From Pseudomonadota bacterium (lineage in GTDB: Bacteria; Pseudomonadota; Alphaproteobacteria; Rhodobacterales; Rhodobacteraceae), in the NCBI GenBank assembly GCA_038751255.1, contig JBCDGN010000006.1, forward strand, positions 689 through 64,688: DNA of 64,000 nucleotides, given 5' to 3'. The position numbers and the translations under genes were made by a program. Below the pieces are notes generated by a model that saw nothing but the letters and a program-made list of their open reading frames with translations, searched no databases and had not been told where the DNA came from. Numbering within the stretch: the first letter of the stretch is position 1; every line of letters begins with the position of its first letter. Of this stretch, positions 5,994 through 22,134 are shown piece after piece.

Positions 5994-5999
5994 GCCACG

Positions 6000-6638
6000 A
6001 TGACGCTGGTCATCATCAATCCCAATAGCACTGAAGCGATGACCGCTGGCATGCTTGAGGTCGCGCGGAACCTCGCTCCGGATCAGGTGGTTGAGGGGTG
6101 GACCTCGCATTATGGACCGCCCGCGATCCAAGGAGCGGAGGATGGCGCGGCCGCGGTGCCCCCGCTTTTGGAGCTTGTGGCAGAGGCCGATCGTCTCGGG
6201 GCAACCGGGATTATCCTGGGCTGTTTCGATGACACCGGTCTTGCGGAGGCCGCAGAACTAGCACGCTGCCCTGTCTTAGGTCTGGGTCAAGCCGCCTATC
6301 ACACTGCAGCGCTGCGGCAATGGCGGTTCAGTGTGGTGACAACACTCTCTGTCTCGGTGCCTGTGCTGGAAGAAAATATCCTGTCCTACGGGTTATCAGG
6401 CTATTTGGGTCGAGTACGGGCCTCGGACATTCCAGTTCTGGAACTTGAGACTGATCCTGCGGCCGTGGCCCGCATCGCAGCAGAGATTACAGCGGCCCAC
6501 GCAGAGGAGGGGGCTCAGGCCATCGTCCTAGGCTGCGCTGGAATGACCGGCCTGAGCGAAGAGTTGCGCATCCATGCCCCGGTGCCCATCATCGATCCGG
6601 TTGAGGCCGCAGTGAGGTTCGTCGGGGCGGTAGGCTAG
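6000..6638 (+). CDS. Asp/Glu/hydantoin racemase family protein
   Basis: N-terminal LVIINPNSTEAMT motif and ~210 aa size are typical of the HyuE-like racemase family. Last gene of the ABC operon (6 nt after the permease stop). Confidence 0.7.
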   Translation: MTLVIINPNSTEAMTAGMLEVARNLAPDQVVEGWTSHYGPPAIQGAEDGAAAVPPLLELVAEADRLGATGIILGCFDDTGLAEAAELARCPVLGLGQAAYHTAALRQWRFSVVTTLSVSVPVLEENILSYGLSGYLGRVRASDIPVLELETDPAAVARIAAEITAAHAEEGAQAIVLGCAGMTGLSEELRIHAPVPIIDPVEAAVRFVGAVG

Positions 6639-6925
6639 AGGTTTAGGTTTAAGACGCTTGCCAACGAGTAACGCCAGTCAGAAACTCACTTGCTACGCGG
6701 TTGCTTTGTCGAGTGTTGGAATTGCGATGGGCAGCTCGACACTTTTGCCGTCTATTTGGTGACGCCATAGCTGCTTCAAATAGCTTCCCCGCACGCTGTG
6801 TTTTGGCGTTGTTAACTGACATCTAACGAAGAACGCTTGGAAAAAAACTTGCTGGATTGGTGAGTTTGCCGCAACATTGTCCCAAAGGCGCGGGGGAAAC
6901 CCGCCAGCCTTCGGGGGGAGGCTAT

Positions 6926-8785
6926 ATGAGCGATCTGTACAAGCCGAGTATCTACGACCAGAGCGTGGATATCCGGGCCCGGTATTTCCGCGAATGCGAG
7001 GCGATGCTCGCCTATTACATGTCGCGCGGGATCGTGGTCACCAAAGAGATTTCAGACGAAATCGGTGGGCTCGCGGGGTATCTGACGATTGGGATCGACA
7101 AGCGCGACGAGATTCCGATGTCCGCACTCAACCGCTTGCACCATCTGCTCGCGGATTCGATCAAACCCGCATTACCCCGCACCATCGAGATGATGCATTG
7201 GGATGCACGCAACAGACCCATGCGTCATCGGATTGCGCCGGTCCCTGCGATCCGCAACCTCATTATGTTCACGATCTTCTCGTTCGCCTTGGGAATCTGG
7301 ATGCTGGTCCAGGGTGGAGATCCGGCGCTCTACAAAATTTCCATGTTCGATATGGATCCGGGCGATGTGATCCATGTCACATTGTTCTATGCGGCGCTCG
7401 CCTCGACAGGGGCTTGTTTTTCGGTGCTCTATGACGCCAGAAAATATGTGATCGAGGGCAGCTACGACCCCCGAATAGGATCGAATTACGGCATCCGAAT
7501 ACTGCTCGGCATCGTGGCGGGGCTGATCCTGACCCAGTTGCTCGCCGATCCCAAGGTCAATGATGATGGTCAGCCAACCACGGGCCTGCCCTATGGCATG
7601 CCGATCCTTGCGCTGCTCGGCGGGTTTGCTTCGCAATTTGTCTATAACGGTCTGAACAAGATGGTTGAGGCAGCATCGTCTATCTTTGAGCCCAACCGCG
7701 CCCAACAGGTTGATATGGCCGCCAAAGAGATTCGTGTCGCCACGGCAGAGAATAACATGTCGTCCACCTTGGGACGGATTGAGGCCACAGTGGACACCTT
7801 TGCAGAGATCGCGCGCGATCCGAAAAATGCCGCTTCGCCAGAAACCTTGGGCAAGCTTCTGAAGATCGCAGGCTCCAGTCCTGCGGCGCAACCCGCAACA
7901 CGCGCCTTGGGCGCTGCGCTTGGCCCGCATCGGGAATTGCTCGACAAGGTCGAAGGCGCCATCCAGGCAGGTAAGGTGTTGTCGCATGTCCTTCCGGGCC
8001 GAGAGTTGCGGGGGATCGTCTCTAAACTCGGGCGGTTGGAAAGCACGGTCGATGGGATCAAGACACTCGCGGGCGCCGGGGCGCAGTTCGACGCGGCCGA
8101 AAACCTGCTGGGCGTTGCGCGCAATTTGGGCGAACTTGATCCGACCCGGGCGGTGCTGAAACAAGCGGTGAAAGCCTTTGGTGGACTGCGCGGGATTGGA
8201 ACGCTCGCCATGGGGCCTACAGGTCTTGCGGTGGCGCTGATCTTAGGATCTGCCCGGCTTGGCGGGACGGTTTACGATCGCTGGAAAACGCGGGTTCTGG
8301 GCGCGGCTTTTAGCCAAGATCTGTTGCCGCCGGGTCTGCCAAACTCTGGCATGGCGAAAACAATACTGCAGGCGTTGCCCGATCTGTCTGGTCCCATTGG
8401 GGCGCCGCTGATGGACAATCCTGCTGCCTTGACCGATTTCGCGCGCAATGCCGTTGCAGGCCACGATGATGCCCTGTTCTCGGAATACGGCGAGGCGGTC
8501 GGTGGCGACCGGGCAAGTTTTGATGCGGCGCTCAATGACTTTCGGACGCTTGCGGTGGGAGAAGTTTTGCAGGGCGAATTGCCAGACGAGGTGGTCGAAG
8601 CGGCTGGGGCCGAAAACCCACAGGCGCTGTTTGATTTCTTCGATCAGGCACGGGGGGATCGCGAAGCCTTCAAGGCCATGGATGAGCTTTTCCTCGCGGG
8701 AACCAATGCCGCCGATGATGAAAAAGCGCTGCAGGGGTTGCTGAACGGGTTGGCGTCGATTGCTGAAGAGGAGACAACCGCATGA
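6926..8785 (+). CDS. Hypothetical multi-pass membrane protein (first gene of lysis-cassette-like tricistron)
   Basis: ORF track gives 6857..8785; start moved to ATG 6926 (MSDLYKPS) because GGGGGAGG lies 4-5 nt upstream. Four clustered hydrophobic helices (IRNLIMFTIFSFALGIWMLVQ, VTLFYAALASTGACFSVLY, IRILLGIVAGLILTQLLA, MPILALLGGFASQFVYNGL). These are followed by a long Ala/Leu/Gly-rich helical region and a fifth hydrophobic segment (LAMGPTGLAVALILGSA). No family recognised. The stop overlaps the next start (ATGA at 8782-8785). Confidence 0.7.
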   Translation: MSDLYKPSIYDQSVDIRARYFRECEAMLAYYMSRGIVVTKEISDEIGGLAGYLTIGIDKRDEIPMSALNRLHHLLADSIKPALPRTIEMMHWDARNRPMRHRIAPVPAIRNLIMFTIFSFALGIWMLVQGGDPALYKISMFDMDPGDVIHVTLFYAALASTGACFSVLYDARKYVIEGSYDPRIGSNYGIRILLGIVAGLILTQLLADPKVNDDGQPTTGLPYGMPILALLGGFASQFVYNGLNKMVEAASSIFEPNRAQQVDMAAKEIRVATAENNMSSTLGRIEATVDTFAEIARDPKNAASPETLGKLLKIAGSSPAAQPATRALGAALGPHRELLDKVEGAIQAGKVLSHVLPGRELRGIVSKLGRLESTVDGIKTLAGAGAQFDAAENLLGVARNLGELDPTRAVLKQAVKAFGGLRGIGTLAMGPTGLAVALILGSARLGGTVYDRWKTRVLGAAFSQDLLPPGLPNSGMAKTILQALPDLSGPIGAPLMDNPAALTDFARNAVAGHDDALFSEYGEAVGGDRASFDAALNDFRTLAVGEVLQGELPDEVVEAAGAENPQALFDFFDQARGDREAFKAMDELFLAGTNAADDEKALQGLLNGLASIAEEETTA

Positions 8786-9435
8786 TCCGCTATAGCCTTA
8801 TCGCTGCATCGCTCTTGATCGTCGCGAGTTGCGACGCCCCAGGGGTCCGGGCCCTAGATCAGCAGCAAAAAGCCGGATCAGAGGTTCAGGCTGCGACAGC
8901 GCTGCCCAATGATCTATCCGACCCGGTCAATGCCAAGACAGCGCGCAACAAGGCCCGTGCTTGTTTGGAACTCGCCCAGAAGGCGGTGGCAACGGCGCAG
9001 GCCAATACCGATGGTGCGCGCAATGATGCGGCCTGCGCACGCGAGAGCTATGCAAAAATTTTGTCGGATGCGGACCCGGTCACGGCCGCTGATTTCGTGG
9101 GTCAGATGGAAGCCTATCGGTTGACGCGCGAGACATCGACCTCAACCGGTGCGGGACGGCAGGCCAATTCCGCCATCGCGCAAGTGGCGTCACAGTTCAG
9201 TTCGGCAGTGCCCGGGCAGGCGGCGGGCCCCTACTACACCGCTGACAGCCTTTACTGGCAGGCGAGCTTTGCCAGCAGCACGGACCGCGCCTGTGACGAT
9301 CTGAGCGCAGCGGCCGCTGCGCTCGACACTGCGTCGGGTGGTACGAACACCCCGAATTTTCCAAGTTTCAGGGGCTCGGTCCGGGATCTTGACGCCTTGG
9401 TTACCCGAGATGCTGCCCAGAAGGGATGCGCGTGA
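8782..9435 (+). CDS. Hypothetical lipoprotein
   Basis: Signal peptide plus lipobox (SLLIVAS-C), Ala-rich, several Cys. ATGA-coupled to the upstream gene and overlaps the downstream gene by 10 nt. No family recognised. Confidence 0.7.
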   Translation: MIRYSLIAASLLIVASCDAPGVRALDQQQKAGSEVQAATALPNDLSDPVNAKTARNKARACLELAQKAVATAQANTDGARNDAACARESYAKILSDADPVTAADFVGQMEAYRLTRETSTSTGAGRQANSAIAQVASQFSSAVPGQAAGPYYTADSLYWQASFASSTDRACDDLSAAAAALDTASGGTNTPNFPSFRGSVRDLDALVTRDAAQKGCA

Positions 9436-11507
9436 TGACGATCCAGCTTCATGAGCGCGTTTACAAATTCACCACACCGATGATGCGCGGCACTTCGGTT
9501 CAGTTTATTCAGCGGGCTCTGATCGCCGCTGATCTGCTGCCTGCGGGTGAAGATGATGGGCTCTTTGGTACGGCGACGCGCGATGCGGTGTCTGAGTTTC
9601 AGCGCCGAAACGGTCTTGGGGTGGATGGCAAGGTCGGGCAGAACACCGCCGCCGCGCTGAATAAGCTTTTGGATGGCACGCCACCTTCGGAGATGCGGGG
9701 ATCTGGAACGCCATCGGCTCCGAAAAAGCCTGTCTTCACCGGCGCGGGTCCGAAGGTTGTCTCGGATGAACTGTTGCCGAATGCCCGTCCGAAGCGGGTG
9801 ATTATACATTGGACAGCAGGCCGGGGCCGTGCCTCTAACCTCGACAAATCCCATTATCATTTTCTGGTGGAGGAGGACGGCTCGGTGGTTCAAGGGCTCC
9901 ACCGGATCGATGCCAATGACCGACCTCATCCTAACCCGCGCGCCTCGCATACCCGTCGGTTGAACACCCATTCCGTGGGCGTTTCGCTTTGCGGGATGCA
10001 CAATGCCCAGGAGCGGCCTTTCGATGCGGGGAGATTTCCCCTGCGCGAGATCCAAGTGCAGGTCATGGCGCGGCTGGTGGCGCAAATCTGCCGACGCTAC
10101 GACATCCCTGTGACGCGTGAAACCGTGCTTGGGCATGGCGAGGTGCAAGACATCCTCAATGTGGAACAAAATTTCAAATGGGACCCGATGGTGCTGCCGT
10201 GGAAGCGCGATCTGACCTTTCGCGAAACCGGCGACTATCTGCGCGATTTGATCAGAAATGCGATGGAAGAAGACATCGCGGGCGAAGCCGCTGAGACCGA
10301 TGGCACCGGTCAGAGTGATCTCGTGATTTCCGGGCGTAAGGTGTCGGGTGGAGTGATAGATTACGATACCGCCACGTGGATCGCACTGGAACCCACCTGT
10401 CAGGCGATGGGCTGGCCAGCGCCGGTTCTGCTGGGTCTGCCCGAAGATGATAGCCTGGAAGATGAGGCCAATGGGGTTCAGATCGTGCCGAGTGAAGCCC
10501 CAATTGTGCTGTCTCACCGAATGATCCCGGTCGATCTGAAGTCAGAGGTGCTGTGTGTGCGGGCCGATGACTTTGCCGAGGCACTGGAGCTTGGCATCAA
10601 GGTTGAGCCTTCTGGTCAGGTCACGCTCGAAGGCACCATCGGCGGGATTGAAAAAGACGCGGTGACTGGGGCGGTGATGCGTTTTGTGACGATCCAGCGT
10701 GGTGACACACTTTCGGCCATTGCCCGGCGCGAGCTCGGGGATAGTGCGCGCTGGCGAGAGCTGCGGGATGAGGATGGCACGCACTATGATGCGGATAGTG
10801 CGCGGCGCATTTCGGCCGGGGATCGTGTGATGTTGCCGGATGGCACGGCGGCACCAGGGGCCGAAACACAACCGAAATCGGTCGCGGGTCTCACTCCGGA
10901 GATCATCGCAGAAGCCGCGGAAGCCGTCGCGAAGGCGGCCGATCCCGCCTTGAACCGCAAACGCGCCAAAGCGGCACTGCCTGGGATTTTGGAGGCCTGC
11001 TATAAATGGGGCGTCACCGACCGCTCTCACATTGCCTATGTCCTTGCCACGGCGCAGCACGAGTGCAATTTCGGCCACCCGATGGAAGAAAACTGGCGCA
11101 AAAGTGCGGCGCAGTTGGCATATGAGAACAGCAATCTGAACGAAAAAGACGGCGACGGGTTTCTGTTTCGTGGGCGCGGCTATGTGCAACTGACGTTTCG
11201 CTACAACTATCGTCGTTATGGCAAAATCGTGGGACGCGATTTGGAAAATGATCCCGATGACGTGAAAGATCCCGCTGTGGCTGCGGAGATCTTGGTCTAT
11301 GGCATGAGCCAAGATGGGTTTTGTGGACCCAACAAGATCCTATCGGCCTTCGGCGAAGGACCGGATTTCGACTTTATCGGCGCGCGTGCCATCGTGAACG
11401 GCGACAAGAACAAGCACGAAAAGCGCTATGGCACGACCAAAGGTCGGGGCATCGCAGAGCGCGCCATAAGGTTCCGCGACGCTTTAGACACCGTGGACTT
11501 ACCCTAG
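9426..11507 (+). CDS. Multi-module peptidoglycan hydrolase: PG_binding_1 + Amidase_2 (N-acetylmuramoyl-L-alanine amidase) + LysM + GH19/COG3179-like lysozyme module
   Basis: No N-terminal signal peptide. Modules in order: GLFGTATRDAVSEFQRRNGLGVDGKVGQNTAAAL (PG_binding_1); VIIHWTAGRG..HYHFLVEEDGSV..ETVLGHGEV (Amidase_2/PGRP type); VTIQRGDTLSAIARRELGDSARW (LysM); ATAQHECNFGHPMEE..FRGRGYVQLTFRYNYRRYG (phage-endolysin-type chitinase-like fold). Alternative start ATG 9435 (TGATG overlap). Confidence 0.85.
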   Translation: MRVMTIQLHERVYKFTTPMMRGTSVQFIQRALIAADLLPAGEDDGLFGTATRDAVSEFQRRNGLGVDGKVGQNTAAALNKLLDGTPPSEMRGSGTPSAPKKPVFTGAGPKVVSDELLPNARPKRVIIHWTAGRGRASNLDKSHYHFLVEEDGSVVQGLHRIDANDRPHPNPRASHTRRLNTHSVGVSLCGMHNAQERPFDAGRFPLREIQVQVMARLVAQICRRYDIPVTRETVLGHGEVQDILNVEQNFKWDPMVLPWKRDLTFRETGDYLRDLIRNAMEEDIAGEAAETDGTGQSDLVISGRKVSGGVIDYDTATWIALEPTCQAMGWPAPVLLGLPEDDSLEDEANGVQIVPSEAPIVLSHRMIPVDLKSEVLCVRADDFAEALELGIKVEPSGQVTLEGTIGGIEKDAVTGAVMRFVTIQRGDTLSAIARRELGDSARWRELRDEDGTHYDADSARRISAGDRVMLPDGTAAPGAETQPKSVAGLTPEIIAEAAEAVAKAADPALNRKRAKAALPGILEACYKWGVTDRSHIAYVLATAQHECNFGHPMEENWRKSAAQLAYENSNLNEKDGDGFLFRGRGYVQLTFRYNYRRYGKIVGRDLENDPDDVKDPAVAAEILVYGMSQDGFCGPNKILSAFGEGPDFDFIGARAIVNGDKNKHEKRYGTTKGRGIAERAIRFRDALDTVDLP

Positions 11508-11535: not shown

Positions 11536-14500
11536 CTATCGCGTTGAGCTCGCGGTGGACGTCGGTGGTGCAATTTGTAAGGCCTCTAGATCAATCGCAA
11601 CAGGTTTGGGAGCCTCGCCGGGGAGGGTCCCTGCGCGACGGTCGGACACTCTCAAGATGTGGGTGTTTAAATTCTCGGCCATGGGAATGCCTTCGGCGAT
11701 CTTCACCAGGCCGTCTTGAAAGATCTCAAACTGCGCATGGTAAAGCGCCTGGTTGTGCAGAATCGTTGCTGTGGCTTTCCAAAGACCGGGTGTTTCGGGT
11801 GTGGCCCAAAGCACCAAGGGACGCATCACGGCATGGGCTTGGGCCAGATCGTTGCCGCTGCGGTCGGTCTGCCAAGGCAACGCCTCTGCCGCCTCAAAAA
11901 TAGCGAAACTGCCTTCACCCTGACGCCCGTTAAAGTAATGCGTGTAGAAGCGTAGGTAAGCTCCGACGCTGTGAGCCTGATCCATTTTGATGGGACCGAG
12001 CGCGTTTGCGCGATGGATTGCTTCTATCGACCCATCCAATTCAATTGCCTTTTCGCTGTTGAGAATGACGAAACTGCGAACGGGCGCTCTGGGGCCGAAG
12101 CCGAACTGCGCCTCGACCAATGCACCTTCGTCGTAGAAAGACAGCGCAGTTTCGCGCAGATAAACCAGAGAGTTTTCTTCGTCAGCATCCAAAACCTCAG
12201 CGATCAGGCCAAAACTTGCTTCGAAGTCTTCTCCATCCAGAGTGCGCCAACTCGCATGCAGAAGCGGTGCGCGTCCCCAACCAAGGCCTTCGCGCCCGCT
12301 AAAGGCATCCTCACGGTCCAAATTGCGCAGCTCGCCAAGGACAATAGGGGCCTCCCGTCGTGCTTCGGCGCTGAGCGACGCGCGCCGATCTCTAGCAAGT
12401 TGATTGGCGATATCGCGGGCAAGCGCGAGCCGTGCATCGATCTTTTTGTCCAGCGCCACGCGGGCGATTAGAATGTCGATCGGTTGATCCTCAGGCCTTG
12501 CGTCATCGTCGCTGCCACGGACCAAGTGTTGGAGTTTTTCAAAGCGCTCAATCAACGCCAACACAAGTGGCAGACTATCAAGTGATCCCAAGGTCTCTGG
12601 CAGATAGATATCAATCTCTCGGAGCGCTTGCAGCTCCTGATCAAGGCTGCGGGCTGCACGCAAATAAAGATCGGCCGATATCAGTGCCGAGGTGAGGTGA
12701 CCGGGCTGACCGGGATCGAGCTCTAGCGCATCTCGGAAGGTGGTCAGAGCCAGTCCCAAAGCGGTCTTTGCCTCACTTGTGCGTCCCATAATGTGATGTG
12801 TGTTAGCGGCAGCTTGGTGGACAAAAGCCTGTCTTGCGACGGGTTCAGAGAGGCGCGGCGCAAGTTCTTGCTGCGCTTTGGCTTCTGCGATCGCCTCGTC
12901 ATGGAGCTCCCAGAAAAGTTCTGGCGTCAGACGTTTTTCGCCCAGATGCAGTAGCGCGCCATAGATATTCGCCCTTTGATGCAAGCTATAATAGGCGTTT
13001 GGATCGTCCATCGCATCAACTTGGAAATTGTCCAGAACAAAAAGCGCAGAGGATACAAGATCGTGGTCGAGACTGCCTTGTTGTGCTGCGTTGTCCAAAT
13101 CCATCATTGCCAGCAGCATCTCGGATTCAAACAAAGCTTCCGCTGGCAGCGTGCCTGTTTGCCGGAGTTGCTTGATCGTCTCGCTCATACTATCCCGCGC
13201 GATGTACACTCTGGGAAGTGGTGCCCGACGTTCCAGAATCCACTGCGCGGCGCGGAGCCATGTGGTATCCCAGATCAGCCGGTTTTGTGGCAACCCACGG
13301 GTCTGCAAATCATCGAGCAACGCTTCAGAAGCGATGACATCGGCCTCTGTCTGACCAAACTGATCTGCCGCTGCAGCATAATTCGCGCGCATCACCAAGG
13401 CTGTGAGCAACCGGTGGCGCGTTTCACCATTGCTTTGATCTTCGCGCGCAAGGGTCTCTAGCCGGGAAATCGCGTCATTGAGTGTTCTCGGCACTCCCAT
13501 ATGCGGAGTACGTTCGTAGAAGATGCTCGCTTTTGTGGAATCGATCTTCGCGCGCAACAGCGTAAGGCGGCGGAAATCCATCTCATCGCTGTTCAGAAGT
13601 TCCAGAGCGACGTTGTCGGCCATCTCGATGAACGGATCAGGCGAGATGTCGTAGCGTTCCTCGAAATCGAGATTTCTCAACGCAATCGCGCCATCCAGTG
13701 CTGCATTGGCAATCGCATAGCGTATTGCTGCGATCGAGCGTCCTTCTGCCTCTGCAAGGGTCTCTGGCGCGCCCAGGGCATCTTGCCACTCCGACCTGAA
13801 GCTTTTGAGCACTGGTTCGACACGGTCCCATTGGGTTGCGAAATCTCCGACATCGAACAAAGTCGCGGCGCGAAGTGTCTCTGACCGAACATGGATCTCT
13901 AATCGTTCGACGGCGGAAAAGTCTTGCTCACGCGACAGTTCGTCGGCGCGTTCTAGCCACGTTTCCATTCGGATAAGGTCAAGATCCGCGCTGGCATGTT
14001 CGGCCAAGGCTAAGGCCGCGGCGCGTTCAAGATCAGGTTCGGGCGTCCAGCTGTCTCGCGCATCGGTCAATAAAGTCTCGAGCCGCCCCGCCAAATTGCT
14101 TTCATAGGCCCACATTCCTGCATCGCGCAGTGCGTTCAGGCCCGCCAAATAGAACTCAGCGCGCTGGTGCGTTAGTTCGGGCGACGGTCCGGAGACCTCT
14201 TCAATTGAGAGCAGGGCCTGTTCTGTGTCTTGGATCAGCCCGAGCTTCTCGGATGCCGGTATCGCGGCGTTCGTTTCTAGTCTTTCAACAAAGCCAAGTG
14301 CCAATTTCTCTGTGCTGGTAAGCAGTTTTCCACGTTCTTGAGCGACCTCTTGCTCTTTTTCCTGTGCATAGGTGGCAGCTTGGCGGGCATAGAAAACCGC
14401 GACCAGAGCGATGATGGCAATGACAGAGGCCGTGCCCGCCAGGGTTGCCAAGGCACGGGTGTTGCGGCGTCGGCGCTTTTCAATTTGTTCTTGCTCTGTC

Positions 14501-15957
14501 CGCTCTGCGATTTCGCTCTGAGTAAGAAAGCTTTCCAAGGGCTCAAGCGATTTGACATAGCGCTTCGCCCAGGCCGGCTTTGGGTCCGTTTCGTGCCACC
14601 AATTTGACATGGTGTCCAAATCGAGCCCTGCCAAAAGCCCGCCTTCATTGGCACTGTACCGCGCCTCAGCATTGGCCAATCGGCGGAGCGATGCCGCAGC
14701 GGCGGCCTCTTCCCCAACCCAGGCGGACAGATCGGTCCATTGACGGATCAAACTTTCATGGCTGATATCGACGATCATATCCGGACTGAACGGCTGCGAG
14801 ATGTCGGGCCGTAAATAGTTCGCGCCGGTGGCGCGGAACGCGTCGATCACTGGGGCCAAAACCATCGGATCAGCGTCAATCTCGTTTGCGAGGTCCGCAA
14901 CGCGCAGGGGACGGCGTGTCGCAGCTTCAAGCGACACACCACGGACAAGTGAGCGAAAAATCTTTGGCACAATCGCTTTTTCAGCATCGCTGAGGCCTGC
15001 GATGATTTCATCGCTATGGGCGTCAATCGCACCTTTCAGGCCGCCCAGGGCGACATAGGCCTCGCTGGTCAAAACGACGGGATCATCATCTGCAGCCAGT
15101 TGCCATAGGCGGTTCAACAGATGTTGCATAACCGGCAACTGATCCGCGCGACGTGACAGCGCACGCAGCTGGTCCGAAAGGTCTTCCGCCCCCCAAGGCG
15201 CGAAACTGCTGAGATCGTTGAGAATCGTGTTGACCAATTTGGGCTCGATCTCGGTCCCAACCAGGCGGGCAGGTCCAACGATCGCCTGACGGCACTCTTC
15301 GCGCGTCATCCGCGGTGTTAGGTAACTGCCCGCGTTGATCCATTCTGTCAGATTGGGGATCAATGCACAGGCACCCAGGAATTCCGATCGCATGGTCAAG
15401 ACCACATGAATCCGGCCTTCTGACCAATCGGCGGCCTCCGTCAGCAGTTTGACGAACGCCTCCGCGGTTTCGCGTTCCTCATATTGCGAGAAGCGAAACA
15501 GTTCTTCGAATTGATCGACCAGCACCAATAGCTGCGCTGATTCCGGGATATGCCCATCTTCGATCCATTCGACCAGTGATCGAGGCCCGCGTCGGAGGTT
15601 CCACTCCAGTGCATCAAGTTGTTCGTCCAGAGTGGCTTCGGTGGTTTCTTCGCCGGAATGGATGGTCTTCAACGCCCGCGCAAGACTTCGGATCGGCTGA
15701 CCGCCCGGGGCGAAGTCGCAAAAACACCACTCAGAGCCCGCGGGGTGCAAGCCCAACTCGAGCCCTTCGAACAGACCGGTGCGAACAAGTGAAGACTTCC
15801 CAGAGCCCGACGCACCTAAGACAGCCAGAAACCTGGTTTTGTGCAATCGTTGGATCAGTTCTGCAACCGCGTCGTCCCGTCCGAAGAATAAATCACCCTC
15901 GTCAGTGTTGAAGGCACGTAATCCGGGATAGGGCAGTCGAGCTTGCGGATTGGTCAC
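11536..15957 (-). CDS. STAND-class P-loop NTPase with one transmembrane helix and a ~950-aa helical-repeat C-terminal region
   Basis: Long ORF 11536..16152. Start placed at GTG 15957, which overlaps the TGA of the upstream TIR gene (GTGA); the remaining 5' part of the ORF lies inside the TIR CDS. N-terminal motif PYPGLRAFNTDEGDLFFGRD, Walker A GASGSGKSS, Walker B LLVLVDQFEELF. RRRR followed by the helix ALATLAGTASVIAIIALVAVFYA (nt 14386..14454). TPR-like helical repeats, then an unassigned globular C-terminus. Confidence 0.85.
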   Translation of the reverse strand: MTNPQARLPYPGLRAFNTDEGDLFFGRDDAVAELIQRLHKTRFLAVLGASGSGKSSLVRTGLFEGLELGLHPAGSEWCFCDFAPGGQPIRSLARALKTIHSGEETTEATLDEQLDALEWNLRRGPRSLVEWIEDGHIPESAQLLVLVDQFEELFRFSQYEERETAEAFVKLLTEAADWSEGRIHVVLTMRSEFLGACALIPNLTEWINAGSYLTPRMTREECRQAIVGPARLVGTEIEPKLVNTILNDLSSFAPWGAEDLSDQLRALSRRADQLPVMQHLLNRLWQLAADDDPVVLTSEAYVALGGLKGAIDAHSDEIIAGLSDAEKAIVPKIFRSLVRGVSLEAATRRPLRVADLANEIDADPMVLAPVIDAFRATGANYLRPDISQPFSPDMIVDISHESLIRQWTDLSAWVGEEAAAAASLRRLANAEARYSANEGGLLAGLDLDTMSNWWHETDPKPAWAKRYVKSLEPLESFLTQSEIAERTEQEQIEKRRRRNTRALATLAGTASVIAIIALVAVFYARQAATYAQEKEQEVAQERGKLLTSTEKLALGFVERLETNAAIPASEKLGLIQDTEQALLSIEEVSGPSPELTHQRAEFYLAGLNALRDAGMWAYESNLAGRLETLLTDARDSWTPEPDLERAAALALAEHASADLDLIRMETWLERADELSREQDFSAVERLEIHVRSETLRAATLFDVGDFATQWDRVEPVLKSFRSEWQDALGAPETLAEAEGRSIAAIRYAIANAALDGAIALRNLDFEERYDISPDPFIEMADNVALELLNSDEMDFRRLTLLRAKIDSTKASIFYERTPHMGVPRTLNDAISRLETLAREDQSNGETRHRLLTALVMRANYAAAADQFGQTEADVIASEALLDDLQTRGLPQNRLIWDTTWLRAAQWILERRAPLPRVYIARDSMSETIKQLRQTGTLPAEALFESEMLLAMMDLDNAAQQGSLDHDLVSSALFVLDNFQVDAMDDPNAYYSLHQRANIYGALLHLGEKRLTPELFWELHDEAIAEAKAQQELAPRLSEPVARQAFVHQAAANTHHIMGRTSEAKTALGLALTTFRDALELDPGQPGHLTSALISADLYLRAARSLDQELQALREIDIYLPETLGSLDSLPLVLALIERFEKLQHLVRGSDDDARPEDQPIDILIARVALDKKIDARLALARDIANQLARDRRASLSAEARREAPIVLGELRNLDREDAFSGREGLGWGRAPLLHASWRTLDGEDFEASFGLIAEVLDADEENSLVYLRETALSFYDEGALVEAQFGFGPRAPVRSFVILNSEKAIELDGSIEAIHRANALGPIKMDQAHSVGAYLRFYTHYFNGRQGEGSFAIFEAAEALPWQTDRSGNDLAQAHAVMRPLVLWATPETPGLWKATATILHNQALYHAQFEIFQDGLVKIAEGIPMAENLNTHILRVSDRRAGTLPGEAPKPVAIDLEALQIAPPTSTASSTR

Positions 15958-17414
15958 AAGCGCGGTTCCAATACGTGAAAGATCCGGTCGATGTCGAAGC
16001 CATCGGTGCAATCGATAACTTCGAGACTTGGAAAGCTTTGGTTGATTGATGCACCGCCCTTCGGAGGCGCTTTCACTAAAACCGTGAATTCCGGAGGTGT
16101 TTCGCGCAGGGCAATCGCGCGTCTCAAGCGATTCAGGAAGCTTCGCACCCAAGACACGGGCGCATTGCCCTGCATCATCAAAACCGCATCACTTTCGGTG
16201 AGGTTGAACCAGATATCCTCGTCCCGCTCATGCGGATCGTCATCGAAACAGGGAATTGCCGCGAAACGTTTGCGCGCACCAAAAGCCTGCAAAAGCTCTG
16301 AGGCGATGTGTTCGTCGCTGGCATCGGCGCCTATGAAGTAGTGTGATGTGCTGAGCTTTTCAGGCGCAGGCTTCTTGATCTTTTCCAGGCGTTCGACAAT
16401 CTCAGATTTGAACGCTTCCAATCCTGAGGCGATCACATGTTCTGCGGATAAAAGACTTTGATGATGTTCTTGTGGGATCTGTTCAAGGTCGATTTCCTGA
16501 TGGCGCCAGCCGAGCCGCTCGACACCCGCCGCTTGGGCTGCGTCAGCCTGATACATGGGATAGCCGTCCGGCATATCCGGTGGTTGGCGTCCCGCTGTTC
16601 GACCGAGCAATTGCACGAACAAATCAGCGTCCTGCAAATCTTTTTCGAAGGCTGCGCGAAACTCCTCGCCGCCTTGTGGATAGTGGAACTCTGGGACGAC
16701 CTTGATACCAAGCTGCATAAGCGCCGCCCGCACCTGTTCGCGTTCAAAATCCACATCCTCGGTTGATTGCGCCAACAGCACGGTGCCGCGATCAGAAGAT
16801 TGCGTTTCATCAATCTCTGGATCTAAACGAGCACTTGGCGCGATCGGCCTTGTTCTGGTGCCGCCGGACGAGCGCGCATTCCGGATATCGACCAATGCAT
16901 CACGCAACTGATTGGCAAGCTGTGTGATATTTGTCATGTAGAGTTCCCAATCGGTCTTTATGTCGAGCATCATAGGTGTCTGCCCGGTCGGTCCGGAACG
17001 CCGCCAAAACTCAAACCGCAGATGTTCCGATAGCCCAAACCGCGCCTGGCCAGTTTCTTCTAGTGGCAATAACTCAACAAAGAATTGCTGGTTTGAGGAG
17101 GGGTTGTGCCGCCGAAAGCAATCCAGTTCCAGCTGCGTGTACTGGCTATTGACGAAGGCCGGCGAGGCAAGGCCGAGAAACAACGCTGATCCACCGACCT
17201 CTTCGGTCAAAGCCTGATCCAACACTTGATTGGCGCGCAGATGCGTTTGGTCCCAGAACACCTCAACCCCTTGTTGGCTGAGCCTTTGGTTCAGCATCTC
17301 CCTTAGTCGCTGAACGAAAGTTTCTACGACCCCATGATCGTCAGAGCCACGAATATTATCCGCGTGGGCATAACTGATAAACAGGTCGTTTTTGCATCCA
17401 GGAATGAAGGCCAT
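15954..17414 (-). CDS. TIR domain protein with unassigned ~340-aa C-terminal extension
   Basis: N-terminus KNDLFISYAHADN plus SQYTQLELDCF (conserved Glu position) fits the TIR fold. The later stretches DADLFVQLLGRTAG and SDAVLMMQGN resemble DUF4062/TIR-like strands, but I cannot assign them. Confidence 0.85.
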   Translation of the reverse strand: MAFIPGCKNDLFISYAHADNIRGSDDHGVVETFVQRLREMLNQRLSQQGVEVFWDQTHLRANQVLDQALTEEVGGSALFLGLASPAFVNSQYTQLELDCFRRHNPSSNQQFFVELLPLEETGQARFGLSEHLRFEFWRRSGPTGQTPMMLDIKTDWELYMTNITQLANQLRDALVDIRNARSSGGTRTRPIAPSARLDPEIDETQSSDRGTVLLAQSTEDVDFEREQVRAALMQLGIKVVPEFHYPQGGEEFRAAFEKDLQDADLFVQLLGRTAGRQPPDMPDGYPMYQADAAQAAGVERLGWRHQEIDLEQIPQEHHQSLLSAEHVIASGLEAFKSEIVERLEKIKKPAPEKLSTSHYFIGADASDEHIASELLQAFGARKRFAAIPCFDDDPHERDEDIWFNLTESDAVLMMQGNAPVSWVRSFLNRLRRAIALRETPPEFTVLVKAPPKGGASINQSFPSLEVIDCTDGFDIDRIFHVLEPRL

Positions 17415-17642: not shown

Positions 17643-19157
17643 TCAGTTGCCGAAGAGCTTATTTCCGAAGGCGTTGCCAATGCCCTCACCCACCCCTTTG
17701 ACAAAGGAGTTCACGGCTCCGTTGCTCTTCTTGGATCGGCTCGAAGAGGATGACCGACTGCCGCCGCTGCTGGTGGATTGCGTGACCATATATGCGGCGT
17801 AGGTTGCCTCAGTTTGGCTGGTCAGCAGTTCAAGCTGCAAAGAATTCAGGTACTGCGTTGCAGGCAGTCCATTTGAGGTTTGCCAAGCAGCGATGCCGCG
17901 GCGTGTATTGGGACCGAAGGCGCCATCAGGTGTGCCAACATTGTTGTTGGTTGCGTTGAGACGCGCCTGGATTTCCCGGCGCTTGTCTCTGTCCATGTTT
18001 AGCGCCTGCTCTGTGATCTGAGTTGCAGGTGCGACGATGACATGCTGTGTCACATTCAAGACCAGAGGCAACGAGGGATCATAGGTGCTGATCGCTCGTG
18101 TGGCGGCGGCTACATTTGGTGCTTCCGGCTGGGCAGGTGCTAGGCCCGCAGTTTGCTCTTCAGCACCCTGCAGACGCTCAATAGCAATCCGTGCGAAGCG
18201 GGCATAGCGACCGTTTGGGTAAAAGTCCAAATACGCTTGGTAATCCTCAGCAAAACCGGATTCCCGCGCGAGTTCAAACATGTACTTTTCTTCTTCGAGA
18301 TCGACAACGGATACAGCGGCAGCAGGCGCGTCGGTTGCGGTCTCTACGGGTGCGGCTGGTGCCGCCGCAACGCGATGCAAAACGACTTCATCGGTATACG
18401 ACTGGTTGAACCAAGGACGCTGTTGCTGATCCGTGGCACGATACACATCCCCGGTCACACGCGACATGATCGTGGTGATCGGTTCATTGGGGGTGCCGAT
18501 ATGCTTCAGCAGCGCTTCGGTGAAAGGCGAATGCTGTCCATCGCCGTCCAAGGCGACGTTGCCTGGCTCTGTTGCGAAGACAATGCCCGTCCCCGACCCA
18601 TTGTCCTGAACATTCATCTCACTCAGTCCGGCCCCACCGATGGAGCGTGTGGAGCCTTTCAAAGAACGCGCCAGCTTGTCCTGGAAAGGATTGTCGCGAC
18701 AGGCGTCCAAGATCAGCAGATTGGCGCCTTGGGTATATTCCATCTGCTTGGTGATCACGTCGATCGAGAAGGCCTCAAAGTCGATGGAAAGCTCATCATC
18801 CATTACGGCATCGACAGGGATAAGATAGTTGCGGCCGTCCACCTGAATGCCGTGACCGGCATAGAAAAATAGCGCCATATCGGCTGAGCGCACCTCGCGA
18901 GCGAACTCGCGGGCCATTTTCGCCATATCTGCAGCGCCGAGATCATAGCCTTCCAGCGTTTCGAAGCCGAGCGTGCGCAGCTTAGCTGCAATCGCTTGCG
19001 CGTCATTCTTAGGATTGGCCAGCGGACTTGCGTGTTCATACTCGCTATTGCCAATGATGAGGGCGACTTTGGCAGCAAATGCTTGAACGGGTGTGGTGAC
19101 CACGAGGATCGCTGCGAATGCGATGTTGCGAACCCTGCGGGAGGTGATCTGTTCCAT
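17643..19157 (-). CDS. Exported caspase-family (peptidase C14) protein with C-terminal PG_binding_1-like domain
   Basis: Signal peptide (VQAFA-AK). KVALIIGNSEY, His motif FFYAGHGIQ and Cys motif LLILDACRDNPF. C-terminal GTPDGAFGPNTRRGIAAWQTSNGLPATQYL, then a Ser/Gly-rich tail. Confidence 0.9.
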   Translation of the reverse strand: MEQITSRRVRNIAFAAILVVTTPVQAFAAKVALIIGNSEYEHASPLANPKNDAQAIAAKLRTLGFETLEGYDLGAADMAKMAREFAREVRSADMALFFYAGHGIQVDGRNYLIPVDAVMDDELSIDFEAFSIDVITKQMEYTQGANLLILDACRDNPFQDKLARSLKGSTRSIGGAGLSEMNVQDNGSGTGIVFATEPGNVALDGDGQHSPFTEALLKHIGTPNEPITTIMSRVTGDVYRATDQQQRPWFNQSYTDEVVLHRVAAAPAAPVETATDAPAAAVSVVDLEEEKYMFELARESGFAEDYQAYLDFYPNGRYARFARIAIERLQGAEEQTAGLAPAQPEAPNVAAATRAISTYDPSLPLVLNVTQHVIVAPATQITEQALNMDRDKRREIQARLNATNNNVGTPDGAFGPNTRRGIAAWQTSNGLPATQYLNSLQLELLTSQTEATYAAYMVTQSTSSGGSRSSSSSRSKKSNGAVNSFVKGVGEGIGNAFGNKLFGN

Positions 19158-19205
19158 GAAACTATCCCTTTTGCAGATTGATAACGTTTGGCGCCGACCA
19201 GCGCC

Positions 19206-19754
19206 TCAAAGGTTTCCGATGTTCACGATTTCAATGCGCTGGTTCATAGGATCGGCGGCATTGCCGGAGTTCAGTGCCGATGCGCCCATACCTTGAACGC
19301 CCAAGAACTTGTCCGTGCCCATTCCGTAGAAGCCTTGCAGATGTTCTAGGACAGTCTGCGCGCGCCGGGCAGAGACAGGCTGTGCCGAAGCCGGTGCGTT
19401 CGGCGTATAGGCATAAGCCAATATCTGGAACTTTGAGTTTTGTAAGCGGGGATCTTCCAAAGCCGCAGCAAGTGTGCGTAAAGTTTTCATCCCATCTACC
19501 GTTAAAAGATGAGACTCGCCCTCGAAACCAACTTGAAGCTTGGCCACCGGTTGGCCGGAGGCTTGCAGCGCGACTGCATTTGCATTCTGATTTGGACGTG
19601 TAACTCCGCGATCGGCCGCCATTTGCGGCATCAGGGCAGTCACAATTTGTTCATACGAGAAGGATGCTTGCGCGTTGGTTGCGGGTGCAAATGACACCCC
19701 TAAAAACCCAGCAATCAATCCAATTCTAACAGTTCGATTCAAGGATTCTAGCAT
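19206..19754 (-). CDS. Exported OmpA_C-like (peptidoglycan-associating) protein, degenerate motif
   Basis: ORF track gives 19206..19829. Start moved to ATG 19754 (MLESLNRTVRIGLIAGFLGVSFAPATNAQA is a signal peptide, with AAGG 5 nt upstream). C-terminal FQILAYAYT..VSARRAQTVLEHL..NQRIEIV matches the OmpA C-terminal pattern, with the GHTD box degenerate. Confidence 0.7.
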   Translation of the reverse strand: MLESLNRTVRIGLIAGFLGVSFAPATNAQASFSYEQIVTALMPQMAADRGVTRPNQNANAVALQASGQPVAKLQVGFEGESHLLTVDGMKTLRTLAAALEDPRLQNSKFQILAYAYTPNAPASAQPVSARRAQTVLEHLQGFYGMGTDKFLGVQGMGASALNSGNAADPMNQRIEIVNIGNL

Positions 19755-20302
19755 ATGCCTTACCCCAATTGACTGATCTGCGAAATCCAGCAGCGACCTA
19801 TAGAAAAGACCATTTGGACGCCACGTCAAGAAGTCTAACCAAAGCCCAAATCAGAAGCTAGAATTTTTGCCCTCAACCCAGAGTTTACCGCTTATTTATG
19901 AGTCCTAGCGCACATTAACATCTTGCTTGGCGACCTTAGATCCGCCATGCAACTGGGGCGGGCAGTCTCACAAAATATTGTTACAATTGTATATTATCGA
20001 AAGCACAGGCTTGGTGCCTATGAAGGCTTTGCCGCCGTTCCGGCCTCCAACAGAGGCGGTATTTTTGCTGATGAAATGCCGTTATCACGCTCCACTGCCA
20101 CGGTAGACATAGTTTAACTTGACTTAGGGTCCCCTCAGCGAGGAACGTTTGCGGGCGATTCCAAACGCCGCATCGTGGTCTAAACGAGTGTCGGCAGTCA
20201 TATTTTTGAACGAATGAGAAGTTGATGCTAAATTACGCTGGTTTTATAAAACTACGGATTGTCAATTCCCGGAATTTTTCGACTATTTGACCGGGTCCTC
20301 AC
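19755..20302. promoter_or_regulatory. AT-rich divergent control region between the two exported-protease operons
   Basis: 548 bp without a credible ORF, between a minus-strand start (19754) and a plus-strand start (20303). Visibly AT-rich and contains the perfect 10-bp palindrome TACAATTGTA at 19982..19991. Promoters inferred from gene geometry only. Confidence 0.4.
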
Positions 20303-21079
20303 ATGCATTTTTTCCGAATTGTGATAAGTCTCCTGTCGATCCATCTGATAGTTGCGCCGGCCATCGCGCAAAGCCAACGCGCGTTGAGCGTCGAGCAAAT
20401 TACAGTACAAGAAGCAAAGCCGAGCGAAGGCGCGTATTCGATCACAGCGACGCTCAACAATTTCGATGGGGTTTACCGTATTGGTGATCCAGTTGATGTT
20501 TCTGTAAGCTTAGACAAATCAGCCTATGTCCTGGTTCTGAACGTCGATGAAAGCGGGCGTATTGTTCAGCTCTTTCCTAACAAATTTGAGTCACGGAATT
20601 TTTTCCAGGCTGGGCAGACCTATAAGTTACCCGGTGAAGGCGCACGCATCGTCGCTGCGGGACCACCTGGGCTTGAGTTGATCAAGATCATTGTGTCCGA
20701 GAAGTCTCTTTCTTTGGATGCGATGATGGAAACAGCGCCGATTGGACCTTTTGAGATCACGCCCCCAGGTGCGGGTGAGGGTGTGGCGCGTGCACTGGGC
20801 GTGTCGCCCTTGCAAATGCCTGCAAGCCCGGATCCAGAACCCGAAGCTCCGAGTCCGGTGGAGGTTCTCCCTGAGTTCGGGGCTTGGGCAGAGTTGACCT
20901 TGGTTCTGAGCACGGTGTCTGCTGACGACAGTCCGAGCGGTGCGGCCCCAACACTCCCTGGAGAAGGTGAACAGGGAGAAGATAGCGGCATGGCGCCCGT
21001 TGCGCGCATGCTCTGCAGTGGGGTGCGAAACCTCACCAATCAGCCATTTGCTGTAAAGGAGCAGATCGAATGCGTTTAG
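20303..21079 (+). CDS. Exported DUF4384 domain protein
   Basis: Signal peptide (APAIA-QS). YRIGDPVDVSVSLDKSAYVLVLNVDESGRIVQLFPN matches the DUF4384 pattern. Pro/Glu-rich linker in the C-terminal half. Confidence 0.75.
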   Translation: MHFFRIVISLLSIHLIVAPAIAQSQRALSVEQITVQEAKPSEGAYSITATLNNFDGVYRIGDPVDVSVSLDKSAYVLVLNVDESGRIVQLFPNKFESRNFFQAGQTYKLPGEGARIVAAGPPGLELIKIIVSEKSLSLDAMMETAPIGPFEITPPGAGEGVARALGVSPLQMPASPDPEPEAPSPVEVLPEFGAWAELTLVLSTVSADDSPSGAAPTLPGEGEQGEDSGMAPVARMLCSGVRNLTNQPFAVKEQIECV

Positions 21080-22134
21080 CGGCCATCTCGCAGGGGCTTG
21101 CGCTGCTCGTACTCGGGCTTTCGGCGCAATCTCTGTGGGCCGACACGGCCGTCAAAATTGCTCTGCCTGATCCGCTGTCGCAACAAGCACTTCAGGCGTT
21201 AGGCAATGGTGAGGGGAATGTTCTGCTTTCGCCCCAAAGCCTTGTGGATGTGGTTGCGCTTTCTCGAGCAGGATTGGGAGAAACACCGCCTACCGCTCTT
21301 ATGCCGAGCACGGTTGTAAGCGCGAATGCGGCCTGGTTTGACACAACTGCCGTGCCGACTGCGGAGGCATCCAAGACCCTGACAACGGACTGGGACGCAC
21401 CGCCGGTTTCGCTGGACATGGCTAAAGATGGTAAGACGAAGATCAATGAATGGGTGCGCGAGGCCACCGAGGGCCGGATCCAAGACCTGATCACTGACCC
21501 CTTAGTCGGTGTCAGCGTTGTTTTGACCAACGCTCTGGTTTTTAAGGACGCTTGGCGTGTTCCTTTCGATCCAGACGAGACAATCCCGCGCGACTTTCAT
21601 CTCACGGGTGATGAAACTGTCGAGGTGCCCTTTATGCTGAGCCCTGTTGCTGCGCTCTGCCAGGATTCGGAACAGGGTGTCCTTGTCGCGCTGAGCTTTG
21701 CAGAAGCAGGTCATCTCGTGTTGCGTCCGCAGGCCGAAGAAGCTGCGATGACATGCACCGGTGAGCTTGAAGCCAGCGATGAGGGTGCCGATGACAACCG
21801 CCTAGTGCAGGTGGCCATGCCGCGCATTGATCTGACCGCTGACTTGGATTTGTCCGGGTTGGTTAAGACGCTCGGCTTATCGGCTGCGATGGCGGAGGGA
21901 TTTGCGTACTTAACGGTTGCACCGTCAGTGCCCGGTCCGGTTTTGCAGTCGGTTCTCTTTCGCGCAGATGAAGAAGGGGCAGAAGCAGCCGCCGCGACAG
22001 CAGCCATCGGTGTACGGTCGGTCCGGGTACCAGAATCACCGTTGTTGGTTTTCGACCGCCCTTTCGAATTCTTTGTGATGATGCCAGGTCATGACACGGC
22101 GATGATCGCTGGCATCCTGAGAGATCCGAGATAA
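21070..22134 (+). CDS. Exported serpin-family protease inhibitor
   Basis: Signal peptide (QSLWA-DT). Serpin landmarks LLSPQSLVDVVAL, KINEWVREATEGRIQDLI, LTNALVFKDAW. Reactive-centre-loop hinge EEGAEAAAATAAIGVRSVRVP, followed by FDRPFEFFVM. Overlaps the upstream gene by 10 nt. Confidence 0.85.
   Translation: MRLAAISQGLALLVLGLSAQSLWADTAVKIALPDPLSQQALQALGNGEGNVLLSPQSLVDVVALSRAGLGETPPTALMPSTVVSANAAWFDTTAVPTAEASKTLTTDWDAPPVSLDMAKDGKTKINEWVREATEGRIQDLITDPLVGVSVVLTNALVFKDAWRVPFDPDETIPRDFHLTGDETVEVPFMLSPVAALCQDSEQGVLVALSFAEAGHLVLRPQAEEAAMTCTGELEASDEGADDNRLVQVAMPRIDLTADLDLSGLVKTLGLSAAMAEGFAYLTVAPSVPGPVLQSVLFRADEEGAEAAAATAAIGVRSVRVPESPLLVFDRPFEFFVMMPGHDTAMIAGILRDPR

Follow-up and report, generated by a model that had tools for sequence, protein, structure and literature searches.

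Two adjacent minus-strand genes from a member of the Rhodobacteraceae (Alphaproteobacteria) encode a TIR protein and an NTPase of the nSTAND1 family that are found side by side, and in the same order, in bacteria of many phyla. They lie in the window analysed here, a 64,000-nucleotide stretch of assembly GCA_038751255.1 (contig JBCDGN010000006.1, positions 689 to 64,688), where the gene for the 486-residue, three-domain TIR protein (15954..17414) is followed by that for a 1473-residue NTPase predicted to be anchored in the membrane (11536..15957). The pairing is conserved and is not a matter of chance. With slightly more confidence than doubt, we read the two genes as a split, membrane-anchored NLR-like switch that would, on a cue from outside, activate its partner TIR protein, a putative nicotinamide adenine dinucleotide (NAD+)-cleaving enzyme (NADase). 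The role of such a switch would most likely be in defence or conflict. Coordinates given below are those of the window, and all features of the pair are on the minus strand.

A conserved pair of genes with a shared start and stop

The TIR gene runs from an ATG (17414-17412) to a TGA stop codon (15956-15954), as given by the list of open reading frames (ORFs) and their translation. The protein begins with MAFIPGCKNDLFISYAHAD, and both the DLFISYAHAD and the QLELDCF segments are present in the translation. The minus-strand letters 15960..15954 read c-TTG-TGA, and the GTG within them (15957-15955), with which the STAND gene starts, overlaps the TIR stop codon to form a GTGA junction (15954..15957). 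The sharing of these four nucleotides, claimed in the initial annotation, is thus borne out by direct reading. The STAND gene ends at the stop codon 11536-11538, and its frame offers three starts and no other candidate: TTG 16152, which gives the longest ORF, TTG 16011 and GTG 15957. The last is the right one, because homologous STAND proteins start 7-10 residues ahead of a conserved RLPYPGLRAF motif and because the public NCBI record gives a product of 1473 residues. The possibility that translation starts elsewhere, on which the initial annotation had made the coupling depend, is therefore not supported for either TTG. A scan for promoters and terminators gave counts not above those in shuffled sequence, and neither a tRNA nor an Rfam match was detected in the window.

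Full-length homologues of the TIR protein number 131, with lengths of 470-520 residues. Six of their loci, from ocean, soil, Mesorhizobium, Variovorax and Nitrospira, were inspected individually. In five of them, the next downstream gene on the same strand is annotated as nSTAND1; in the sixth, the Variovorax locus L005, it is a 1372-residue gene without a Pfam entry, which is 35% identical to the NTPase module of the window (E 1e-63). The gene surroundings of the six are otherwise unrelated. A scan of one genome per species then yielded at least 410 relatives of the TIR protein, from which 79 loci were kept. According to local hidden Markov models, an nSTAND1-type gene begins at the TIR stop in 77 of these loci; the two remaining contigs end there, so that the informative count is 77 out of 77. 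The two-gene order, which the initial annotation knew from a single locus, is the same in every one of them. These 77 loci are spread over at least nine phyla, the hosts being Alpha-, Beta- and Gammaproteobacteria, Acidobacteriota, Verrucomicrobiota, Planctomycetota, Bacteroidota, Myxococcota, Nitrospirota, Margulisiibacteriota and one Heliomicrobium.

The junction itself is tight almost everywhere. Forty-five loci show a 4-nucleotide NTGA overlap like that of the window, five an overlap of 1 nucleotide and five an overlap of 8-11 nucleotides, so that start and stop can overlap in 55 of the 77; elsewhere the genes are separated by 0-30 nucleotides (21 loci) or by 50 (one locus). Since the start closest to the stop was chosen each time, these counts carry some bias toward overlap. 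No third conserved gene accompanies the pair: no flanking family is common to more than five of the 79 loci, and the pair therefore appears as a self-contained two-gene module. Large clusters of flanking genes that had come out of an earlier clustering were discarded, as they consisted of shadow ORFs overlapping the two genes.

The TIR protein: one domain with a catalytic Glu and two degenerate ones

The AlphaFold2 model of the TIR protein, built from 47 sequences (mean predicted local distance difference test, pLDDT, 89.5), consists of three alpha/beta domains, at residues 1-182, 211-347 and 358-486, with a disordered linker at residues 186-205. Domain 1 (residues 1-182; 16869..17414) matches Pfam TIR_2 with an E value of 4.4e-13 (50.2 bits, for a cut-off of 28). 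Its Foldseek matches are the TIR domains of RPP1, SARM1, AbTir and MyD88, with the plant TIR-NLR resistosome proteins RPP1 and ROQ1 on top. The glutamate that NAD-cleaving TIRs use, which the initial annotation had thought to be kept in this domain, is indeed there: a profile alignment matches E96 (codon 17127-17129) to the Glu in the W-C-x-x-E-L motif of the plant TIR NADases RUN1 and RPS4, a residue of helix alphaC, and E96 is invariant in all 126 family members.

The ~340 residues that follow had been recognized as an extra region of a separate 486-residue protein, to which no fold could be assigned. The description of a separate protein stands; the region can now be assigned, since profile and Foldseek searches with the C-terminal residues resolve it into two further domains of the TIR superfamily. 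Domain 2 (residues 206-350; 16365..16799) is DUF4062/NIR-like. The copy in the window scores below the Pfam gathering cut-off (E 2e-3, 18.6-19 bits, for a cut-off of 24.7), and 15 of 21 family members match DUF4062, the best with an E value of 4.7e-6. DUF4062, renamed NIR, has been described as a TIR-like NADase with an essential Glu in three preprints of 2026, and replacement of that Glu by Gln or Ala abolishes the activity of PsAvs2, Vulcan, Vesta, TEP1 and KpSwz (10.64898/2026.09.04.749371; 10.64898/2026.05.01.722283). When the sequence of KpSwz (from PDB 10wc) was aligned to the domain-2 profile, by HMMER and by hhalign, the two were in register and the catalytic E97 of KpSwz fell both times on Q289 (codon 16548-16550). 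This position is Gln in 122 of 126 members and Arg in the other four, never Glu, and its pocket neighbours A293 and W303 are almost invariant. The catalytic Glu of the S-x-T-E-x-E motif of NIR enzymes is not present in the domain. Because the position of KpSwz E97 is held by Gln or Arg and never by Glu, domain 2 is predicted to be a conserved pseudo-NADase, which has a fold related to NIR and is not a NIR enzyme.

Domain 3 (residues 352-486; 15957..16361) is TIR-like. Thirteen of 21 members match Pfam TIR_2, the best with an E value of 7.4e-6, and the window copy itself gives no match. Modelled separately, it reaches a pLDDT of 90.3, and its best Foldseek matches are TIR-STING, RPS4, the TIR-APAZ protein of SPARTA and the TIR domain of SARM1 (TMq 0.6-0.69). 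The position of the catalytic Glu is occupied by Gln in 73 sequences, Arg in 35 and Phe in three, never by Glu; the residue in the window is Phe. A Foldseek search with the full-length protein was dominated by the N-terminal TIR domain and did not inform on domains 2 and 3. Profile comparison of the domains with one another was in register and non-significant (hhalign probability 2-18%), so that the domain assignment rests on the Pfam matches across members, the KpSwz alignment and Foldseek. By these comparisons, the TIR protein is made of one TIR domain with an intact catalytic Glu, followed by two degenerate domains of the TIR superfamily. As the Glu is kept in domain 1 and replaced in domains 2 and 3, a single active site is predicted per TIR protein.

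The STAND protein: an NTPase module, a predicted membrane helix and a variable, probably outer region

The partner is an nSTAND1 NTPase. Residues 9-437 (14647..15933) match Pfam PF20703 with an E value of 4.6e-93 (313.3 bits, for a cut-off of 27.1), and the Walker motifs that the initial annotation had reported as intact are found as GASGSGKS (residues 48-55; 15793-15816) and LVLVDQFEELF (residues 144-154; 15496-15528). The module is 35-51% identical to that of the partner proteins at other loci. nSTAND1 is the sole Pfam match of the protein, which shows no SLOG, Macro, STING, SAVED or CARF domain.

Directly after the NTPase module comes a single predicted transmembrane helix of 19 residues, LATLAGTASVIAIIALVAV (residues 503-521; 14395..14451; Kyte-Doolittle score 2.4), preceded by the basic stretch EKRRRRNTRA. 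Sixty-four related STAND proteins have a counterpart of this helix, and it is the most conserved feature beyond the NTPase module. Lysine and arginine residues flank it unevenly, in strong agreement with the positive-inside rule, with a mean of 5.6 on the N-terminal side and 2.5 on the C-terminal side, the N-terminal side being the richer in 56 of the 64 proteins. The STAND protein is thus predicted to be a single-pass membrane protein with the bulk of its C-terminal part in the periplasm: the ATPase must be cytoplasmic, and since there is one helix only, the 952 residues beyond it should be outside the cytoplasm. The initial annotation made no mention of this helix, which, if the prediction holds, adds membrane anchoring to the reading of the pair. 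With such a helix and a predicted outer C-terminus, the protein would not be a cytosolic sensor of the Avs kind.

The 952 residues that follow the helix (11539..14394) contain no cysteine and are rich in Ala, Leu, Glu and Arg. Their larger part (residues 522-1219; 12301..14394) has no Pfam match and probably consists of helical repeats, weak TPR matches being seen in its relatives. It is predicted to be extracytoplasmic. Conservation of the post-helix region is limited to the closest relatives, the corresponding regions of the other partners being unrelated, and its length varies among relatives from 3 to 1781 residues, with a median of 652. Some relatives carry WD40 or TPR elements in their C-terminal region, while the NTPase and TIR parts stay conserved. 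A C-terminal region as variable as this fits a diversifying sensor.

The protein ends with a domain of ~210 residues (residues ~1220-1440; 11638..12300), which is a candidate extracytoplasmic sensor. A word-indexed search with the STAND C-terminus returned nothing besides itself. When 1.84 billion representatives were searched exhaustively with HMMER, 326 proteins were found to match the post-helix region at E<=1e-3, most of them over the last ~210 residues only. No match was found in Pfam, NCBIfam or the PDB sequences. The C-terminal end that the initial annotation had singled out for a family search accordingly has no counterpart in these databases, and it does contain a recurrent domain. 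The same domain ends other nSTAND1 giants, some of which have a fused N-terminal TIR_2 (P0131, P0146), and a relative with ankyrin repeats, P0126, in which no transmembrane helix was detected. It also occurs, after a transmembrane helix and Sel1 repeats, in the Ser/Thr receptor kinases P0168 and P0193 (Pkinase-TM-Sel1), as well as in small proteins with clear signal peptides. P0201 (613 residues) has an N-terminal TIR_2, one transmembrane helix, four Sel1 repeats and the ~210-residue domain, a layout like that of a Toll-like receptor (TLR) without an NTPase. The kinases, P0201 and the proteins with signal peptides lend independent support to an extracytoplasmic location and a sensor role, and its presence in P0168 and P0193 shows that receptors of several kinds have this outer module in common.

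In six other proteins that combine nSTAND1 with the same C-terminal domain (P0127, P0138, P0147, P0152, P0161 and P0169), ~200 residues are fused at the N-terminus, which start with VFxSSPGD and contain an SGT-x-YE motif (SGTEYE). Pfam gave nothing for this segment at 1e-4, and its comparison with DUF4062, with KpSwz and with the domain profiles was not significant. The segment may represent a TIR/NIR-like effector not described before, its likeness to the catalytic motif of DUF4062 being one of motif only.

A model for the pair and its alternatives

How the two proteins might work together can be outlined as follows. The nSTAND1 module would be cytoplasmic and tethered at the inner membrane by its one helix, with 952 residues facing the periplasm. 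A cue from the envelope or the periplasm would be read by the outer or the membrane-proximal region; once freed in this way, the ATPase module would take up ATP and oligomerise under the membrane, as other STAND/NLR proteins do. The oligomer would then collect the partner TIR protein, presumably made from the same message, and the clustered TIR domains would form composite active sites around E96 and cleave NAD+. The output might be NAD+ depletion and growth arrest, or an ADP-ribose-derived signal. Domains 2 and 3, which would not act as enzymes, might provide docking, a scaffold or template, autoinhibition, or nucleotide binding in the conserved Gln pocket. The initial annotation had proposed an NLR-type STAND protein with a TIR acting in trans, and this core of the model gains support from the pairing in all 77 informative loci, from the gene overlaps, from the invariant Glu and from the TIR_2-nSTAND1 fusions P0131 and P0146. 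The fused relatives point to direct activation rather than to a diffusible relay. A more ambitious version would make the pair a bacterial transmembrane pattern-recognition receptor, in which an NLR-type ATPase surveys the periplasm or the envelope and signals to a separate TIR NADase, the dead TIR-superfamily domains with their Gln pocket serving for docking or templating or as nucleotide sensors. We consider this version doubtful as it stands.

Several observations weigh against the model of a split switch in defence. Docking through domains 2 and 3 is a guess and its weakest step, as no adaptor with which to bind the TIR protein can be recognised in the STAND protein, whose nSTAND1 match starts at residue 9. 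Some partners have merely 3-200 residues after the helix, or two helices, and keep their TIR partner all the same, which means that an outer sensor is not universal. The 527-residue STAND partner of locus L026 ends a few residues past its helix, and those of loci L009, L010 and L014 have two closely spaced helices forming a hairpin; all four retain the three-domain TIR partner. Most loci lie among housekeeping genes. Searches of plasmid and phage collections with the TIR protein (tblastn) gave no match, so that a defence role lacks the support usually drawn from islands and mobile elements. Finally, PADLOC returned weak domain-level matches at most.

The order of events could also be the one known from Thoeris: the three-domain TIR protein would be the sensor and signal maker, and an ADP-ribose-derived product would act on the STAND protein as effector, for instance by clustering its membrane helices, or on some other effector. 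Indeed, stand-alone TIR proteins with extra domains serve as Thoeris sensors (10.64898/2025.12.03.692087), the helix is better conserved than anything else beyond the NTPase module, a nucleotide could be bound in the conserved Gln pocket of domain 2, and a gene for a SLATT/DUF4231 two-helix effector lies just upstream in four of the 79 loci, SLATT effectors being known to answer cyclic ADP-ribose (cADPR) in type VII Thoeris. Against this, such neighbours are present in only ~5% of loci, the STAND protein has none of the known signal-binding domains listed above, the Thoeris models score far below threshold (ThsB1, E 0.008; ThcB4, 16.5 bits for a cut-off of 220) and the TIR-nSTAND1 fusions favour direct activation; we therefore hold a Thoeris-like order to be improbable. 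Slightly less probable still is that the helix is a tether and nothing more, the NTPase module or the degenerate TIR-like domains reading the trigger in the cytoplasm, with the outer region as an accessory. The short and hairpin partners just mentioned, as well as the helix-less P0126 with its same C-terminal domain and ankyrin repeats, are what one would expect in that case. A post-helix region of 952 residues in the window, and of 652 in the median, is not; neither is a C-terminal domain shared with receptor kinases and proteins with signal peptides, and the variability of the family is concentrated beyond the helix, as would be expected of a sensor.

A third possibility leaves immunity aside and sees in the two genes a housekeeping transmembrane signalling pair, concerned with the state of the envelope, cell-cell contacts or development, in which the TIR protein makes a nucleotide second messenger. 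The chromosomal location among housekeeping neighbours in most loci examined, the absence from the plasmid and phage collections searched, the outer domain in common with Ser/Thr receptor kinases and hosts that are mostly free-living environmental bacteria would all suit such a function. On the other hand, the characterised bacterial combinations of TIR, NIR or STAND have so far all been found to act in defence or conflict, the patchy distribution across phyla suggests horizontal spread, toxin-antitoxin, SLATT and TPR-S genes are neighbours at some loci, and the C-terminal regions are hypervariable. We regard a function outside immunity as rather unlikely, and retain the split, membrane-anchored switch as our working model.

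Relation to known systems

Conflict systems built on nSTAND1 NTPases and on NTPases bearing TIR domains have been predicted by comparative genomics (Kaur, Iyer, Burroughs, Aravind 2021, eLife, PMC8195603). They resemble the pair described here in that the NTPase is of the same family, TIR is among the effectors and the effector may be a separate protein. They differ in the way the two are coupled, since their separate effectors are joined through an adaptor, either an effector-associated domain (EAD) or a Death-like domain, carried by both proteins, and the STAND protein of the window has no adaptor. No EAD or Death-like domain is shared by the two window proteins: the NTPase occupies the chain from residue 9, and all three domains of the partner are of the TIR superfamily. 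No description of a three-TIR partner or of a transmembrane topology was found in PMC8195603. STAND sensors facing the periplasm have been mentioned in passing (PMC10907252).

Avs proteins with a TIR or NIR/DUF4062 effector, such as PsAvs2 (10.64898/2026.09.04.749371), have in common with the pair a STAND NTPase, an NAD-cleaving effector of the TIR superfamily and a variable C-terminal sensor. Unlike it, they are single cytosolic polypeptides with the effector at the N-terminus, and sense phage proteins in the cytoplasm. The window pair is set apart from them by its separate effector gene, the Gln in its NIR-like domain, its nSTAND1 type of NTPase and a sensor region predicted to lie beyond a membrane helix; none of the PADLOC Avs models matched it. 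The NADase chemistry of NIR effectors is established by Swarozyc, Evangelion, Vulcan and Vesta, together with the Avs proteins that carry them. In plant TIR-NLR resistosomes (RPP1, ROQ1), oligomerisation of the nucleotide-binding oligomerisation domain (NOD) joins TIR domains into NADase sites, and something comparable may take place here. The TIR of these plant proteins is fused to the NOD, however, and they are soluble, sense through leucine-rich repeats and have no degenerate TIR domains. Thoeris resembles the pair in being a small operon whose TIR protein has a gene of its own, and differs from it in that the partner in the window has no known signal-binding or effector domain and the ThsB models match poorly.

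Animal TLRs and bacterial receptor Ser/Thr kinases of the PknB type place their sensor outside and their signalling module in the cytoplasm, with one membrane helix in between, which is the layout predicted for the STAND protein. The likeness to TLRs is an analogy of layout only: in the window protein, an NTPase switch would be interposed between the helix and the TIR output, and there is no sequence kinship to TLR ectodomains. Among known families, the pair belongs with the nSTAND1 NTPases and with the TIRs that have a catalytic Glu; it falls outside Avs, Thoeris, the adaptor-coupled systems and the NIR enzymes. In the literature, we found no description of this architecture, in which a three-domain partner, a NIR-like domain with Gln in place of Glu and an obligate split pairing with a membrane-anchored nSTAND1 protein come together.

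Neighbouring genes

Just upstream of the pair in the window lies a gene (17643..19157, minus strand) whose product is a caspase of the Peptidase_C14 family that carries a signal peptide as well as a PG_binding_1 domain. It is followed by a gene for an OmpA-like protein (19206..19829, minus strand) and, divergently, by genes for a DUF4384 protein (20303..21079) and a serpin (21070..22134). As this cluster of exported proteins (17643..22134) is not kept beside the pair elsewhere, it is probably a separate set of periplasmic proteases and inhibitors. A TIR-caspase link like that of type IV Thoeris was considered and set aside, since the caspase carries a signal peptide together with a domain that binds peptidoglycan, and is absent from all the other loci. 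On the other side, three plus-strand genes with overlapping stops and starts (6857..11507) encode proteins of 642 and 217 residues without a Pfam match, and a 693-residue protein with PG_binding_1, Amidase_2 and GH19 chitinase/lysozyme-like domains. This third gene converges on the STAND gene, with 28 nucleotides between the two stops.

At other loci, in addition to the SLATT genes, a TPR-S/MAP3K_TRAF_bd gene is found upstream in four of the 79, a set that overlaps the SLATT set; in locus L080, both genes come before the TIR gene. The SLATT/DUF4231 and TPR-S neighbours are at 6100-6573 in L018, 6034-6771 in L073, 6367-6882 in L074, 4595-6614 in L080 and 4308-5654 in L044. They may be accessory effectors, or belong to adjoining conflict systems. 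At the Variovorax locus L005, toxin-antitoxin genes stand on either side of the pair, CcdB/PhdYeFM and ParE/RHH, at 5510-6106 and 14436-14952. Together, the SLATT and TPR-S genes and the toxin-antitoxin flanks of L005 hint at conflict neighbourhoods.

Significance

To our knowledge, the characterised bacterial STAND/NLR-like immune proteins all sense their triggers in the cytoplasm, with switch and effector in a single polypeptide. Members of the family described here were found in at least 410 genomes, each representing one species, from many phyla, and the ~210-residue, predicted outer domain of the window protein, though widespread, is described by none of the family databases searched. As the system has two genes only and makes clear predictions for the mutants E96Q, K54A and Q289E, it is directly testable. 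If our reading is right, the effector would be split from its switch and recruited without any known adaptor domain, and degenerate TIR and NIR domains would have been conserved as structural or regulatory parts, the NADase activity of NIR/DUF4062 being known only since 2026. The receptor version of the model, were it true, would combine the layout of a TLR with the logic of an NLR, around a previously undescribed outer sensor domain that receptor kinases also have. The pair would then extend the picture of bacterial NLRs to a sensor outside the cytoplasmic membrane.

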